Assembly (NCBI RefSeq): GCF_013315695.1
Contig: NZ_CP054354.1
Source: Escherichia coli
Lineage (GTDB): Bacteria > Pseudomonadota > Gammaproteobacteria > Enterobacterales > Enterobacteriaceae
Direction: 5' to 3' (one strand)
Length of the DNA stretch: 64,000 nt
The notes beneath the pieces were generated by a model, which was not told the DNA's origin, did no database searches, and saw only the letters and a list, made by a program, of their open reading frames with translations. Both the position numbers and the translations under genes were made by a program. Positions 2,887 to 39,902 of the stretch are shown piece after piece (within the stretch, counting starts at the first letter, position 1; every line of letters starts with the position of its first letter).

Positions 2887-3076
2887 TAGAAACAGTACAA
2901 GTACATTGCTGTATTGTGTTTTCCTTGAATATTGAATCGCGGTGCCCATGTACTACGATTCCTTTCGTGTTGTTTATCATTGCACACTTTCCCTGACTGA
3001 GCGTAAACACTGACTACTTTCCCCTCAAACTCCTGGACGGCGAATGCAAAATTGGTCTGTTCCAGCATAGAATATG

Positions 3077-4830: not shown

Positions 4831-6177
4831 ATGCCAATGATACTTGTAAAGAAGAATCCCCGGGGCAAAGTGATTCGGGAGCTTAGCAGTGAGGAAGAGA
4901 CTGCAGTAAAGACGGTCTGTGGACTGAAAAAGCCAGCAACCATGGCACTACATAACCTGGCCAATGATATTCTCCGGGAAATGCGTGAGTATGATGCATG
5001 GTTACAGTGTGACTGTATTCCGGGAGATTCGCCGGCCATGAATTTTGCTGCTCTTAAAAACAATACGGGTACTCTTTATCTGTCCAGTTTTAATCATGAG
5101 CATGCACCTGAATGCCCCATGTATCGTCAGTTATCCGGAAATGAAGAGGAAACATCTTCCGGAGCAAGCCGGCATCCCGTTAGCACCCGTATAAATTACA
5201 GAAACTTTTTACCACCTGATGACAGTAATTCTGTTATCAAACTGCAGGCCCGCTCTGCTTACCATAATGGTGAGAGCTCCTCCGTTCGCAAGAAACGTCC
5301 GCGCCTTGCCCGTTTACTCCTGTCGCTTATTGACGATGCTGGGCTGAATAAACTGGATTCCCTGGCTAATCCCCGTATCCGGACTAATTATCGTGAGTGT
5401 CTTGATGCCATACGGCAGGTTACACTGCAGCAGGAGTATATTCGGGGAAGATCCTTATCTGAAATTATCCATTTCCGGCCTGGAATGTCTGAAAGGTCTC
5501 AGGAGCGGTTAATGGAAACGCTGGAGAATTCAGAACGACACTGGCCTGCCAGAAGAAAACATATGTTCTTTCAGATTTTTATGGCGCAGCACATCTGTCG
5601 TGATGCTGTGGAAATTCACTGGGCGAACGGTAATATTCAGGTCATCAGACCTGTGCGGGGGATCAGTATTAATGGTGAAGCGCAGGGCGGAATACGTCCC
5701 CCTTACTGGGTTATTCTTGCTTTTTGCCGGAGTGCCGATGGCAGAATCATCTGCAGTGAAGGGTATGCTCATGCTCTTTATCAACTGACATGTCCGGTGC
5801 CTGTGGACAGCAAACTGGAACGAAACACGCTCACTGCTCTTCTGAATGTGGCCAGCTGGCTTAAAAGAAAGCCAGGTACGCCGGAATTAAGTCTGGAAAG
5901 GCCCCTGTTTGATACAGAAGTTTATGTTAATGGTGAAAAGAAATATGTCCTGCCGGATTTCATTGTCACTGCAAGGGCTCCTGACGGAAAGACGGCCAGA
6001 GTGGTCATCGAAACGATGGGATATGAAGACAGTGATTACTGCGCGAGAAAATCCAGGCAGCATACCGGCATGAAGCAGATTGGTGTTCTGCATACCGATC
6101 CACCGAAATGGCTGGATAACGATCATCCCCCTTTTGAGAAACATATGTACGGTGTTTTTATGCATCTCAGGTACTGA
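4831..6177 (+). CDS. Hypothetical protein (~449 aa) with a Cys/His cluster and a degenerate PD-(D/E)xK-like C-terminal motif
   Basis: ORF track 4762-6177; ATG at 4831 follows AAGGAG (4814-4819). CDCIPGD...HEHAPECP cluster; C-terminal YVLPDFIV...VVIETMGY resembles a TnsA/PD-(D/E)xK core but lacks the Lys. Confidence 0.6.
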   Translation: MPMILVKKNPRGKVIRELSSEEETAVKTVCGLKKPATMALHNLANDILREMREYDAWLQCDCIPGDSPAMNFAALKNNTGTLYLSSFNHEHAPECPMYRQLSGNEEETSSGASRHPVSTRINYRNFLPPDDSNSVIKLQARSAYHNGESSSVRKKRPRLARLLLSLIDDAGLNKLDSLANPRIRTNYRECLDAIRQVTLQQEYIRGRSLSEIIHFRPGMSERSQERLMETLENSERHWPARRKHMFFQIFMAQHICRDAVEIHWANGNIQVIRPVRGISINGEAQGGIRPPYWVILAFCRSADGRIICSEGYAHALYQLTCPVPVDSKLERNTLTALLNVASWLKRKPGTPELSLERPLFDTEVYVNGEKKYVLPDFIVTARAPDGKTARVVIETMGYEDSDYCARKSRQHTGMKQIGVLHTDPPKWLDNDHPPFEKHMYGVFMHLRY

Positions 6178-6204
6178 GATATTTTGTGGCTCAGTTCTGT
6201 AACT

Positions 6205-6250
6205 TTTCCCGTAACATTGTCTGTTGTTACGGGAAAGTCCGGTTTTTGTA
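6205..6250 (+). terminator. Putative rho-independent terminator after the 449-aa gene
   Basis: 12-bp stem tttcccgtaaca / tgttacgggaaa (6205-6236) followed by ggttttt. Confidence 0.4.
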
Positions 6251-6622
6251 TTGCACCAGAGAATACTCAGACTGTGATGCTGCCACAGCGTCAGCAGGCT
6301 TTCTGAACGGTGTAACATTACTTCATGTTAATGATAATCACTATCATTAAATCTTGACATGCCATTTTCTCCTTAATAAATTAATACTGTATATGTATCC
6401 ATATACGTAAGCAGTTAATTCATTTGTTTTCCTCAGAGGATGAAGGAGATACCGAATGTCTGACCCTGTACGGGGTTCAGTGAGTTAGCTGGCCTGGATG
6501 TAACCACTCGTTCAACTCAATTCTCTTAGCGTGGGAAAATTTCCCTTTTCCAAGCGGACCCCTATTAATATTTGTTTTGTTTTAGGTTCTATTCAACATA
6601 GGTCATCCTAAAATACATTGAA

Positions 6623-6654
6623 GATAACAAGATAACAAGATAACAAGATAACAA
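6623..6654. repeat. Iteron array: 4 tandem copies of GATAACAA plus inverted copies, downstream of the partition operon
   Basis: gataacaa x4 at 6623-6654, then ggtgttatcttgttatc inverted copies to ~6690. Confidence 0.55.
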
Positions 6655-6679
6655 GGTGTTATCTTGTTATCTCAAGGTG

Positions 6680-6982
6680 TTATCTTTGTTTTACTTCTGC
6701 TATCAATCGTGATACCTCTGTTTTTGATAGTGTTTTAAGTGCTTCTACCGCCGCCCTGACAACATCAGAACGATTCACTCTGCCTTTACCTGAAACCATC
6801 TCAGCCGTTATAAGGGCATCAATGTCTTTTAGGTTTTCTTCAAAAAAAGAAATACTCACTGGTTTTGCTTTGCTTACAACCGATGATTTATCTGATGACT
6901 TTTTGGTATTATCAAGGCCAGCCGTGCCACCGTTAATAAATGCTGCCTCGTCACGAGGTGAAGTGTTTGCTCTATTTCTCAC
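6680..6982 (-). CDS. Partition centromere-binding protein, ParG-like (predicted ribbon-helix-helix C-terminus)
   Basis: 100 aa; GTG start overlapping the ParA stop (GTGA); C-terminal GRVNRSDVVRAAVEALKTL fits a strand-helix-helix pattern; sits immediately after a small ParA. Confidence 0.55.
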   Translation of the reverse strand: MRNRANTSPRDEAAFINGGTAGLDNTKKSSDKSSVVSKAKPVSISFFEENLKDIDALITAEMVSGKGRVNRSDVVRAAVEALKTLSKTEVSRLIAEVKQR

Positions 6983-7605
6983 AGAATAACCTCTTTCACT
7001 AACGCTTCGATTTCTTGCTGGGCTTTATCATTTTGCGTTTCAAAAATTGTCATTGATTCGGCCCAAGCATCTCGATGTGCTTTACGATCACATACCCGGG
7101 AGTTTGCCAGATGCATTTCAGGGTAATCCTTAAGTACTTCAGCTGCCTCATTGGCTTCATTAACAAACATATTTGTGGGCGTCATGTTTAAAACGAGATA
7201 TCCCCGAACATCCTCATTAAAATCTTTTGCTGCTGTAAAAACGGAGCATGTATGAGGCACAACATCCAGGTCCATCTGAGATGGGCGCAAAGGAGAAATG
7301 AATACATCTGCGGCCATCAATCCACTACGCATTTCTGCGCTATCACGGCCAGCACAGTCTGCAATAACAAAATCATAGGATTTTTCGTGTTCCTTTAACA
7401 TGGCTTTGATGTTACCTGTCGCGCCTGTAACCGGAATATGAGGGAGATCTTCAGGGCGATTGTTGTACCAGGTTAATACTGATTTCTGGTCATCTGCGTC
7501 GACAATAATCACTCTATTGCCTAGTGACATCAGATACGCAGCTATAGATACCGCCAGTGTACTTTTACCTACCCCACCCTTTTGACTACCTAATACTATT
7601 ATCAT
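6979..7605 (-). CDS. Partition ATPase, small ParA (type Ib, ParF-like)
   Basis: 208 aa with deviant Walker A KGGVGKST near the N-terminus; GAGG RBS; flanked by iteron arrays. Confidence 0.9.
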   Translation of the reverse strand: MIIVLGSQKGGVGKSTLAVSIAAYLMSLGNRVIIVDADDQKSVLTWYNNRPEDLPHIPVTGATGNIKAMLKEHEKSYDFVIADCAGRDSAEMRSGLMAADVFISPLRPSQMDLDVVPHTCSVFTAAKDFNEDVRGYLVLNMTPTNMFVNEANEAAEVLKDYPEMHLANSRVCDRKAHRDAWAESMTIFETQNDKAQQEIEALVKEVIL

Positions 7606-7731
7606 TATAGCCTCATATTAAGCTGTTAAGTTAACAACTTAATATTGCCATCTGAACGCGAACCATGCAATTATTTTTGTTATGTTAACAACTTAGCAAG
7701 TTGTTAAGTATTTGATTTATAGATTAATTAA

Positions 7732-7795
7732 GATAACAAGATAACAAGATAACAAGATAACAAGATAACAAGATAACAAGATAACAGGATAACAA
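7732..7795. repeat. Iteron array: 8 tandem copies of GATAACAA (one GATAACAG) upstream of parA; likely centromere/operator
   Basis: Perfect 8-bp tandem repeats 7732-7795; additional palindromes (ttaagttaacaactt) at 7620-7710. Confidence 0.6.
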
Positions 7796-7816
7796 TATTA
7801 TGGGTGGATTACATAT

Positions 7817-9088
7817 TCATAACTGGGCTACTGGCAAATCTGTCCATCTGGTGGTATACGCAGGAGAAAGCATTTCCCGTTTCATTTGCCATTCAGGGGC
7901 GGTTCCTCGCCCCGCAAACCACACTTTCCCTTTTCCCGACTGGTTCAGTTCATCGAGTGTTTTCATTAACTTTTCACTGTTTTTACGGGGCTGGATTTCA
8001 TCAAATAATCCCGGCTGCGCTATACCCGATGGTGTGAAATCAGCCAGCATGACACCTGCCTTCATATAGCGGTACCCTTCACGCCAGACATGGTTTAACG
8101 CTCTGCATGCTGCGGCAATAATGTCCCGGCTGTCCTGTGTGGGCAATGGAAGCTTTTCCACAGCGGCATTGCTGTAACAGGGTTCTTTTACTGCAAAGGG
8201 GGATGTCCGTACAAATGTCGTCACCTGCCGGCAATACTGACGCTCCCCACGTAGTTTCTCTGCGGCCCGCTCTGCATACTGAACAACAGCCTGGTGCATG
8301 GCATCTTTGTCTGTGATTCGTTCACCAAAACTGCGACTACAGACAATCTGCTGTTTTGCCGGCGGTGCTTCTTCCAGAGATATGCAGGACTCGCCGTTGA
8401 GTTCGCGTACCGTACGCTCAAGAATGACGCTGAAGTTTTTCCGGATGAATGCCGTGTTAGCCTGCGCCAGCTGCAGTGCTGTGTTAATACCCAGCGCATT
8501 CAGCTTTTCCGTCAGTCTGCGTCCTACTCCCCAGACCTCACCAACTGGCTGCAACCCCAGTAGCTTCAAGATCCGATTACGGTTTTCTGCCGTCAGCGCG
8601 ACCACACCGGAAAACTGTGGCCATTGCTTTGTTGCCCACTGGGCACTTTTAGCCAGCGTTTTTGTAGGCGCAATGCCCACCCCCATGGTGAGTCCTGTCC
8701 AGCTCTTTACCTGTTCCCTGAGCTGATGACCAAAAATCTCCGGAGAGATGCAATGATTTATCCCCCGCAAATCAATGAACATTTCATCAATTGAGTAGGG
8801 CTCAACTGCGGGAGAAAGCGACTCCAGAACAGCCATAACCCGTTGGCTCATGCTGTGGTACAGCGCATAATTGCTGGAAAATACATGTATTTTCTTCTCC
8901 AGGCGCATTTGTCTCACCTGAAACCAGGGCTGCCCCATTCTGATGCCAAGGGCTTTTGCCTCCGGGCTGCGCGCGATCACACAGCCATCGTTATTGCTGA
9001 GTACGATGACCGGTTCGTTGCGAAGGTCCGGGCGGAAAACTTTTTCACATGAGGCGTAGAAACTGTTGATATCAGCCAGTGCAAACAT
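7817..9088 (-). CDS. impB: Error-prone Y-family DNA polymerase subunit, UmuC homologue (ImpB)
   Basis: 423 aa, N-terminus MFALADINSFYASCE...VIVLSNNDGCVIARS typical of UmuC/MucB/ImpB; start overlaps impA stop. Confidence 0.95.
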   Translation of the reverse strand: MFALADINSFYASCEKVFRPDLRNEPVIVLSNNDGCVIARSPEAKALGIRMGQPWFQVRQMRLEKKIHVFSSNYALYHSMSQRVMAVLESLSPAVEPYSIDEMFIDLRGINHCISPEIFGHQLREQVKSWTGLTMGVGIAPTKTLAKSAQWATKQWPQFSGVVALTAENRNRILKLLGLQPVGEVWGVGRRLTEKLNALGINTALQLAQANTAFIRKNFSVILERTVRELNGESCISLEEAPPAKQQIVCSRSFGERITDKDAMHQAVVQYAERAAEKLRGERQYCRQVTTFVRTSPFAVKEPCYSNAAVEKLPLPTQDSRDIIAAACRALNHVWREGYRYMKAGVMLADFTPSGIAQPGLFDEIQPRKNSEKLMKTLDELNQSGKGKVWFAGRGTAPEWQMKREMLSPAYTTRWTDLPVAQL

Positions 9089-9525
9089 CAGCGTAACTCC
9101 CGCGTCCTGTGTATCACGTGAGTGACAACACCAAAAATACAGATGTTTTCCGGATACAGTGTGCGGAACTCCGGGCTGTCTGAAACCGGCTCCAGTGCCG
9201 GGCGTGGGCGCAACAGCAGTCGTTTGACGGTGGACTCACCGTCGATCTCAGCGATAACGATGTCCCCGTGTTGTGGTTTTTCGGCCCTGTCCACTACCAG
9301 CAGATCACCATTCTGCACGCCAGCCTGGTTCATCGATTCACCGCTGGCGCGCAGAAAGAAGGTGGCTGCAGGTCTGCTGATGCAATAGCTGTTCAGATCC
9401 AGTTCCTGCTCAGCATAATCAGTGGCAGGCGAAGGAAAACCGGCCTGGCAACGATCGGCAAACAACGGTCGCACGTAACTGTCATCGCCTGAAGGGTCAG
9501 CCGGACGGTGATAAACGGTACTCAT
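9088..9525 (-). CDS. impA: UmuD homologue (ImpA), LexA-like S24 peptidase
   Basis: 145 aa with the S24 self-cleavage region (GESMNQAGVQNGDLLVVDR) and Lys in VKRL; overlaps impC stop. Confidence 0.9.
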   Translation of the reverse strand: MSTVYHRPADPSGDDSYVRPLFADRCQAGFPSPATDYAEQELDLNSYCISRPAATFFLRASGESMNQAGVQNGDLLVVDRAEKPQHGDIVIAEIDGESTVKRLLLRPRPALEPVSDSPEFRTLYPENICIFGVVTHVIHRTRELR

Positions 9526-9770
9526 GCTGCAGGCAGCCAGCTGTCGTCCTGCCAGATTTCTTCCAGCAGAGACAGGATACGTTCTTTATCCTTGTCGTTG
9601 CGGGCTCCTGTGACAGATACAGACGGGGCGCTGCCCTGGTCTATACGCAGCCAGATTTCCGGGTAGTGTGGTTTCAGACGTTGTTCGATTTCATTCTGTA
9701 GCGCCTGAAGTGTGCCTGATTTGAGGTTTTTTGTGCTCTGGCGGTCGAAAAGAATTTCAATGCGGATCAT
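9522..9770 (-). CDS. impC: ImpC, small first gene of the impCAB operon
   Basis: 82 aa from ATG at 9770 (MIRIEILFDRQ...), GGAG RBS; ORF track extends it to 9941 but upstream codons lack an RBS and overlap the LexA box. Confidence 0.7.
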   Translation of the reverse strand: MIRIEILFDRQSTKNLKSGTLQALQNEIEQRLKPHYPEIWLRIDQGSAPSVSVTGARNDKDKERILSLLEEIWQDDSWLPAA

Positions 9771-9794
9771 GTTCTCATCTCCCTTTTCTTTATG

Positions 9795-9810
9795 CTGTAT
9801 GTTTATACAG
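9795..9810 (-). promoter_or_regulatory. LexA (SOS) box CTGT-N8-ACAG upstream of impC
   Basis: ctgtatgtttatacag at 9795-9810, 25 bp upstream of the impC start. Confidence 0.75.
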
Positions 9811-10164
9811 TATTCTAATAACTGAATCCGCACACAGTCAAATGTCATTGTTGTGACTAAAAAACGCTCAATTCTCTGAGTGTGTGGCTGTATGCCTGCT
9901 GTGGGCTGCTGTGTCCAGCTTATCCACAGCATTTTGTGCACGGTTCTGTGGACAAAATACCTGGTTACCCAGGCCGTGCCGGCACGTTAACCGGGCTGCA
10001 TCCGATGCAAGTGTGTCGCTGTCGCCGGCCTCCTCACCCGGTCACGTTTCGTCGTTCCTCCTCCACGCGCTGCGGCTTCGGGGCCGCACCTGCATTCGTA
10101 TGCGGTCGCCCGGTAACAGGTGCGGCACGGCCTGATGGAGGCCGCATGTGAGAGGAGAATTCCC

Positions 10165-35819: not shown

Positions 35820-36010
35820 AATAATCTACGGACAGATTACTTTCTGTACTTCCAGAGCCTGTTTCTGTGAGTCAAACATGAGCTGGTTTTTACCGACTAC
35901 ACCCAAGTAAATATATTCGATATCTCCCATTTGCCGTATTTTCGTAAAATTCAACAGGAAATATTCAACGGGAGTGAGAGAACTGCTGTCCGGGGAGGAG
36001 GTACAGACGC

Positions 36011-36044
36011 AAAAAAACCGACTGGTGAGGCCGGTTTTTTTGCG
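36011..36044. terminator. Hairpin with flanking A/T runs at the start of type I module 2
   Basis: aaaaaaaccgactggtgaggccggttttttt, paralogue of 35282-35312. Confidence 0.55.
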
Positions 36045-36105
36045 ATTCCGGATCGAAGTTGGTAGCCCTGACCGGAAGATAACTGCCTATAACTGACTAT
36101 GAAAT
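36045..36105 (-). ncRNA. Predicted antisense sRNA for module 2
   Basis: 36071-36101 repeats 36254-36292 (toxin 2 leader) at ~26/30; repeat sequence differs from module 1. Confidence 0.3.
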
Positions 36106-39420: not shown

Positions 39421-39749
39421 GATGTGTCCTTGTTTTTTATTATTTTGCATTTCAGAAAATAACACGATGCCTGCAGCCCGGAAAACAGATGTGTGCACAC
39501 GTAGTCACTTTCCGGCTTTATTTCTGTCCCTGACACAAAATACGTGGTGGCATGAAAAGGATTGTGGCGGACTGGAAAACGATTAGAATAGCGGCGGGCG
39601 CTTGAGGCTGTATGCCGAAAGCGTTTTGTGGACGGCATGTAGCAGAAAGCCCCAGGCGATTTTTTTATCAATCAACCCAGGGCCCACTGTAATGCCTCAA
39701 CAACATTATAGTAGCCCGATGACGGCCGAAAGGCAATGGAGGGGCTGCG

Positions 39750-39902
39750 ATGCCACAACGAACGTTTTTAATGATGTTAATCGTCGTCTGTGTGACGATA
39801 CTGTGTTTTGTCTGGATGGTGAGGGATTCGCTTTGCGGATTTCGTATCGAGCAGGGAAATACGGTGCTTGTGGCAACGTTAGCCTACGAAGTTAAACGTT
39901 AA
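39750..39902 (+). CDS. Hok/Gef-family type I toxin (PndA-like, 50 aa) with overlapping mok-like frame
   Basis: MPQRTFLMMLIVVCVTILCFVWMVRDSLCGFRIEQGNTVLVATLAYEVKR fits the Hok pattern (...R.SLC....G...V.A.LAYE.K); overlapping ORF 39692-39895 ends 7 nt before the hok stop, as mok does; below the ORF-track cutoff. Confidence 0.7.
   Translation: MPQRTFLMMLIVVCVTILCFVWMVRDSLCGFRIEQGNTVLVATLAYEVKR

Follow-up and report, generated by a model that had tools for sequence, protein, structure and literature searches.

The closest described counterpart of the region considered here is the par locus of the IncI plasmid pESBL from Escherichia coli O104:H4 (Daniel et al. 2020, Genes 11:1207; PMC7602700). 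Tn-seq implicated two of its genes, O3K_25822, which encodes a ParA re-annotated with a Walker A extension, and O3K_25817, which encodes the 100-aa protein Hp7 (PMC7602700). In EMSA the latter protein, ParB, binds octamers, named parS in that work, sequence-specifically and in either orientation. It shifts a probe of seven direct repeats and a probe with 4+4 units in opposite orientation, with up to seven and eight discrete complexes respectively, which is about one complex per unit, and its affinity in vitro is comparable for the direct and the inverted arrangement; the complex with a single unit is weak, which suggests that binding is cooperative (PMC7602700). Foci of GFP-Hp7 are observed only in cells that carry pESBL, and the locus stabilises pXX705, a derivative of mini-F from which sopABC is deleted (PMC7602700). 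A par deletion in pESBL itself causes no visible destabilisation, which is attributed to compensation by conjugation and addiction systems (PMC7602700). When the literature was searched for subsequent studies of this ParB or its octamer, the 2020 paper was the only one found (PMC7602700). In the native context, the contribution of par to plasmid stability is subtle.

Several other type Ib systems are suitable for comparison. In TP228 (ParF/ParG/parH), parH and the operator lie upstream only, with tetramer boxes rather than contiguous octamers. In pSM19035, heptad arrays (parS1-3) occupy several sites around the operon and double as operators, and binding is likewise cooperative and needs more than one unit. 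The repeat units of pB171 measure 6 bp. Its elements are ordered parC1-parA-parB-parC2 (PMC4270457). Dual arrays are known from pB171 and from pSM19035, and the upstream parC1 of pB171 is involved in regulation (PMC7602700).

The par locus of the window and its relation to pESBL

The window is a stretch of 64,000 nucleotides of E. coli DNA (contig NZ_CP054354.1), which has an IncFII/IncI-type repA at its start and the genes yagA, parB-parA and impCAB in IncI order. Its positions 6623-7795 almost certainly represent the type Ib parABS locus common to plasmids of the IncI complex (IncI1, I-gamma, K, B/O, Z), the same system as in pESBL. ParA and ParB of the window do not differ from those of pESBL-EA11 (NC_018659) in a single amino acid, and the two plasmids have an identical octamer; both the protein identity and the GATAACAA unit place this ParB in the Hp7 family of pESBL and the IncI complex. 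The locus is already known, as the 2020 work covered the system together with its key binding experiment. A preliminary description, made from the letters of the window, expected the 100-aa protein to bind at least one of the flanking arrays, and since the protein is identical and the octamer the same, the published pESBL EMSA bears this out (PMC7602700).

The two loci share the GATAACAA consensus, arrays on both sides of the operon, the direct-plus-inverted layout of the downstream array, the gene order yagA / parB-parA / impB and the neighbours yagA and impCAB. Their arrays differ only in copy number and in variant units. Upstream, pESBL has 7 units and the window 8; downstream, pESBL has about 10 direct units (three of them GATGACAA variants; array at 4873-4998 of the extracted stretch) and 5 inverted ones, in contrast to 4 + 3 in the window. 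A further difference is a Tn3/ISEcp1-CTX-M-15/TEM-1 insertion between yagA and parB of pESBL, which is lacking in the window, where this intergenic stretch (6178-6622) is uninterrupted. In NZ_CP090538 an IS26 is found there, and this stretch next to the downstream array appears to be a hot spot for insertions.

The GATAACAA octamer is strongly enriched, with 16 exact copies in the 64-kb window against 1.55 expected; the maximum in 100 dinucleotide-preserving shuffles was 5, and 0/100 reached 16. Twelve of the 16 copies fall within 6623-7795, around the minus-strand genes of ParA and its 100-aa partner. The remaining 4 (23205, 38865, 41694, 46999) are singletons, which is about the number due to chance. 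Tandem Repeats Finder reports arrays of period 8 at 6621-6655 (4.4 copies, 100% match) and at 7730-7795 (8.2 copies, 96% match), and also lists a short inverted block at 6657-6672. This enrichment and the positions of the arrays confirm the two-gene partition cassette with repeats on both sides that had been proposed in the preliminary description. The four exact units reported there are borne out as contiguous direct units at 6623-6654. They were called upstream-distal, but the genes are on the minus strand, so that this array is situated 3' (downstream) of the operon. Only seven of the eight upstream-proximal units are exact (Table 1), not all of them as had been counted, and the three inverted copies directly after the 6623-6654 array were absent from that description.

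Table 1. Features of the par locus, with positions in the window
Feature	Position	Strand	Details	Basis
Downstream (3') parS array	6623-6654		4 contiguous exact GATAACAA units	Sequence; octamer binding published for pESBL, EMSA (PMC7602700)
Terminator-like hairpin in parAB transcript	6636-6674	-	18-pair stem and U-rich tail	Terminator scan, RNA fold
Inverted octamer copies	6656-6684		Three copies: 6656-6663, 6664-6671, 6677-6684	Sequence
parB	6680-6982	-	100 aa, GTG start	ORF
parA	6979-7605	-	208 aa, type Ib Walker-type partition ATPase; WP_000587689.1	ORF and domains
Shine-Dalgarno	7611-7614	-	GAGG, 5 nt upstream of parA ATG	Sequence; invariant in IncI/Klebsiella leader alignment
Palindrome, 31 bp, candidate operator	7615-7645		ATATTAAGTTGTTAAC/TTAACAGCTTAATAT, octamer-like half-sites TTGTTAAC	15-nt arms, 93% complementary
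Candidate parA promoter	7641-7670	-	-35 TTGCAT (7670..7665), 18-nt spacer, -10 AATATT (7646..7641)	Conservation
Second palindrome	7685-7707		TTAACAACTT-AGC-AAGTTGTTAA	Palindrome and promoter scans
Upstream (5') parS array	7732-7795		8 contiguous units: 7 exact GATAACAA and GATAACAG at 7780-7787	Sequence; counterpart of '7-DR' probe (PMC7602700)

Read along transcription, the units of the downstream array are TTGTTATC. The first and the last of the inverted copies correspond to GATAACAC on the minus strand, while the middle copy is exact; read in the AGATAACA frame, none of the three deviates. The parB stop codon (6680-6682) overlaps with the last copy. Together, the 4 direct units and the 3 inverted copies make up the inverted-repeat part of the downstream parS and are the counterpart of the '8-BS'-type probe (PMC7602700). 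The upstream array is placed between the stop of impB/umuC (7817) and the parA promoter, with 126 bp between the array and the parA ATG (7605). The impCAB genes (umuDC-like, SOS mutagenesis; 7817-9941) have the same direction as parAB and end 22 bp from this array (gap 7796-7817). No terminator-like site is predicted between impCAB and the array (7796-7817), and read-through across the array into parAB is therefore possible.

Type Ib systems are recognised by a small Walker ParA (about 200-230 aa, KGGxxK[ST]) without an N-terminal HTH or regulatory domain, a small partner (typically RHH) that is neither an HTH protein nor a CTPase and is encoded directly downstream of parA, and adjoining cis-acting arrays. 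All of these are present here; the arrays are seen in the sequence itself, and their binding is taken from the published work on the identical protein and octamer (PMC7602700). ParA has a deviant Walker A motif, KGGVGKS, within GSQKGGVGKST, and is without an N-terminal DNA-binding domain. Its Pfam matches (MipZ, AAA_31 and CbiA) all begin at residue 2, and these domains, the Walker A motif and the length of the protein agree with the small ParA of the preliminary description. The NCBIfam model ParA_partition matches residues 2-205 with E = 1e-45 and 155.8 bits, which is under its 180-bit equivalog cut-off. The closest solved structure is ParF of TP228 (4dzz, E = 2.3e-14, residues 6-207 aligned).

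The partner gene parB follows closely, as its GTG start shares 4 nt with the parA stop. ParB consists of a conserved N-terminal tail (MRNRANTPPRDEAAFINGG), a variable linker and a C-terminal RHH-like domain (residues ~41-100). Comparison with Pfam and NCBIfam gave no match at threshold, and a sequence search over all PDB chains found no relative, the best hit (E = 8.6) being an alphaRep artefact. Homologues of ParB fall into 164 clusters at 90% identity, mainly from Enterobacterales plasmids, and some of these clusters carry the source names 'Par-like' or 'ribbon-helix-helix domain-containing'. In an alignment of 28 relatives (at least 56% identity) the N-terminal motif RNR...E..FI.GG is invariant and residues 22-37 form the variable linker, which is followed by an invariant KAKPVS.S and a conserved helical domain. 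AlphaFold2 places an extended segment at residues 41-47 and helices at 48-64, 71-82 and 87-98, with a pLDDT of 80-95 for residues 41-100 and low confidence for the N-terminal half. ParB thus models as a ribbon-helix-helix fold. The RHH-like nature ascribed to it earlier is supported by this modelling, although the protein belongs to no curated Pfam or NCBIfam family.

Among the type Ib systems, TP228 resembles the window locus in its ATPase, as ParF is the closest solved relative of ParA, but differs in the partner: no significant sequence similarity between ParB and ParG was found with an approximate ParG query. BLASTP of ParB against this approximate ParG sequence returned only a misaligned 25-residue match, which we discarded as evidence. 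The par2 locus of pB171 likewise combines a small Walker ParA and a small ParB with an upstream array near the promoter, whereas its repeat unit and sequence are different and no detectable similarity of the ParB sequences has been reported (PMC7602700). In pB171, centromere pairing and operator roles are demonstrated, while the operators of the window system are candidates from sequence. The delta/omega system of pSM19035 is Gram-positive, with a larger delta ATPase and no detected sequence relationship, and omega differs further in that it regulates addiction genes and copy number globally; what it shares with the window locus is an RHH protein that acts on contiguous short units (7 bp vs 8 bp here), direct or inverted. 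The preliminary description is correct in substance in proposing a partition cassette, the two arrays of which could be two centromere sites or an operator plus a centromere. It regarded arrays on both sides of the operon as less common than a single centromere. However, dual arrays are not unusual in type Ib, as the examples of pB171 (parC1/parC2) and pSM19035 demonstrate (PMC7602700).

Distribution and copy-number variation

A megablast search of PLSDB with positions 6500-7900 of the window as query (1,401 bp) found partial matches in 3,682 plasmid records, of which 1,262 carry at least 80% of the query in one place. The hosts of the matches are Escherichia, Klebsiella, Salmonella and Shigella, and the best matches are conjugative IncI-gamma/K1, IncI1/B/O and IncK2/Z plasmids. 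In the best 25 matches (at least 98.7% identity) the matched length departs from that of the query by -16 to +152 bp, and for 24 of them this departure is divisible by 8. About 1,260 plasmid matches are full-length; the loci that we inspected number 15. Seven upstream units are present in each of pESBL, CP088354 and CP088639, against eight in the window. The direct units downstream vary more widely, from 3 in CP088639 and 4 in the window to about 10 in pESBL and 24 in CP088354. In the latter (CP088354.1, IncI1/B/O; locus ~381-640), the 24 units include 14 consecutive TTATTACC in gene direction. The copy number of the arrays varies like that of a VNTR among near-identical plasmids.

Klebsiella IncFII/FIB(K) plasmids possess a more distant version of the cassette, with 87% identity over query positions 122-1299, which correspond to 6621-7798 of the window (NZ_CP054973.1, locus 1274-2528). 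The homology starts and ends at the outer edges of the arrays, and we interpret this as an indication that array-parB-parA-array behaves as an exchangeable module. The Klebsiella cassette has different flanks, with repB at one end and a gene for a site-specific integrase at the opposite end. Its arrays comprise 9 direct units downstream and about 12 units upstream, five of which are GATAGCAA variants.

The Salmonella Infantis plasmid pR22.3740_195k (2990-3320) keeps a parB homologue, while parA just upstream is lost and about two octamers remain downstream. Past the last parA codons the sequence is unrelated to parA, and the par locus of this plasmid looks decayed. A stretch of Pantoea agglomerans pPAG02 (3001-3055; 32-bp exact match) was considered as an orphan centromere and rejected. 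It consists of 3.5 GATAACAA units followed by three copies of an unrelated GGAGGTAA, is flanked by pagP and a sugar transporter (sugar-porter) gene, lacks par genes in its vicinity, and is probably a coincidental microsatellite.

Possible roles of the arrays and of the palindromes near parA

Relatives down to 58% ParB identity retain 8-bp arrays though their units differ. In the following, units are written in gene direction, and the arrays of the extracted loci are found at 1620-1870 (upstream) and 2805-2885 (downstream). In Citrobacter (L010/L011; ParB 58%) the downstream array consists of eight or four copies of TTGTTATC with one inverted AGATAAC before them, and in a first pair of Pantoea loci (L008/L009; ParB 71%) of six to eight copies of TTAATAAG; the upstream repeats of both groups are degenerate and phased at 8 bp. 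A second Pantoea pair (L012/L013; ParB 60%) has three to four copies of TCTTAGTA downstream, together with inverted copies. Upstream, palindromic sites are recognisable by eye in this pair, and Tandem Repeats Finder found no period-8 array there. The upstream neighbour umuC is also present in Pantoea L012.

Three of the four groups of relatives, the most distant with 58% ParB identity, preserve the two-sided layout, from which we infer that each of the arrays works as a parS site. As KAKPVS.S, the predicted DNA-reading ribbon, does not change between relatives with different units, the determinants of specificity must lie elsewhere.

An alignment of the parA leaders of IncI and Klebsiella plasmids displays two conserved blocks with 16-18 nt of diverged sequence between them, which we interpret as the signature of a promoter. 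This TTGCAT/AATATT candidate scores under the threshold of the scan tool; a TTGCnn-N18-AATrTT arrangement is also visible by eye in Pantoea L008. The 31-bp palindrome overlaps the -10 and the predicted +1 (near 7634) of the candidate promoter and abuts the Shine-Dalgarno GAGG. It is conserved between IncI and Klebsiella, in contrast to the adjacent diverged spacer, and its half-site TTGTTAAC is one base off the parS unit. The second palindrome overlaps the -35 TTGCTA (7699..7694) of a promoter-like site reported by the scan tool, the -10 of which (AATAAT) ends at 7670. The 10-mer from which both palindromes are built (TTAACAACTT / AAGTTGTTAA) has 7 matches at up to one mismatch against 2.2 expected and is enriched only in this region, where four of the seven lie. 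The upstream array starts 62 bp upstream of the TTGCAT -35, and of the promoter-proximal octamer-like units one is in phase with the 8-bp register of the array (7684 = 7732 - 48) and another is out of phase. In Pantoea L008, three direct units at the same promoter position match the unit of its own array. The likeness of the half-sites to the octamer, their overlap with the promoter and the units of Pantoea L008 together suggest that the palindromes are a candidate ParB operator, distinct from the upstream array.

Termination of the parAB transcript could take place at the inverted junction of the downstream array. The predicted hairpin (Table 1) folds with -35 kcal/mol (z = -5.95), and 0/200 shuffles are as stable. 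Citrobacter likewise has a direct/inverted junction (8-bp stem), which the Klebsiella version lacks, so any role as a terminator is not universal. Scanned with Rfam, the window has no match in the par region; elsewhere, there are gathering-level matches at 39596-39752 and 36009-36096, to sok (124.7 bits; hok/sok- or pnd-type addiction locus) and to the AgrB antisense RNA (47.7 bits).

We tentatively put forward a joint reading of these elements as one possibility. Both arrays would be centromeres, and the promoter palindromes with their TTGTTAAC half-sites would form a separate operator, bound by ParB at a different affinity. The downstream junction may double as a terminator. Expansion of variant units (GATGACAA, GATAGCAA, GGTAATAA) may tune the loading of ParB, or else the partition incompatibility between plasmids with this ParB in common (IncI, IncK and Klebsiella IncF).

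It is also conceivable, if rather doubtful, that the arrays divide the labour, one being the centromere and the other purely an operator, so that, for example, the upstream array represses parAB and the downstream array segregates the plasmid. The upstream array is situated 33-62 bp upstream of the candidate -35 elements, but overlaps neither candidate promoter, while separate palindromes overlap the -35 and the -10/+1. Likewise, the involvement of the upstream parC1 of pB171 in regulation parallels such a division (PMC7602700), yet the promoter-proximal arrays of pB171 and pSM19035 also have centromere activity (PMC7602700), and both repeat arrangements are bound with comparable affinity in vitro (PMC7602700).

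That the arrays are non-functional, slippage-prone microsatellites, which flank the operon by chance, is very improbable in view of the published specific binding and foci of ParB (PMC7602700). Steps of 8 bp in copy number among near-identical plasmids and the expansion of variant units in blocks, such as the 14 TTATTACC units of CP088354, are what slippage would produce, but the two-sided positions are conserved in divergent relatives, and the promoter-proximal units of Pantoea L008/L009 match the unit of their own downstream array.

Initiators of the IncFII/IncI-type RepA class are controlled by antisense RNA and not by iterons, which counts against replication iterons in this window. The term iteron, used in the preliminary description, is a misnomer, and a role of the repeats as Rep-binding iterons is hardly credible: their short, tandem and direct arrangement on a plasmid and the repB beside the Klebsiella cassette would fit it, but the repeats of the window are not origin repeats that adjoin and are bound by Rep, its IncFII/IncI-type RepA (1-1032, RepA_IncFII_LM, NF040977) is encoded about 5.6 kb from them, and the repeats accompany parAB on plasmids with other replicons and are octamers bound by ParB (PMC7602700).

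Proposed mechanism and significance

Partition by this locus would follow the type Ib paradigm of TP228, pB171 par2 and pSM19035. Dimers of the RHH protein ParB would coat both arrays and thereby form the partition complex. The flexible, conserved N-terminal tail of ParB (R2/R4, E12-G19 motif) would contact ParA and stimulate ATP hydrolysis, and ParA-ATP dimers, bound non-specifically to the nucleoid, would form a gradient that spaces the plasmid copies. Autoregulation probably proceeds via the octamer-like promoter palindromes, alone or with the upstream array, and the inverted junction of the downstream array may also end the operon transcript.

The additions made here to the published system are modest and of specialist interest: the RHH model of ParB, the VNTR-like arrays, the array-to-array module, the variation of the unit among relatives that retain the arrays, and the candidate operator palindrome. 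Recognition of the cassette averts mis-annotation, as ParB is a 'hypothetical protein' in most records and ParA was first annotated without its Walker A motif. The cassette helps to segregate plasmids of the IncI complex and Klebsiella IncF plasmids, which spread ESBL and other resistance genes, and it is a target for plasmid-curing or incompatibility strategies.
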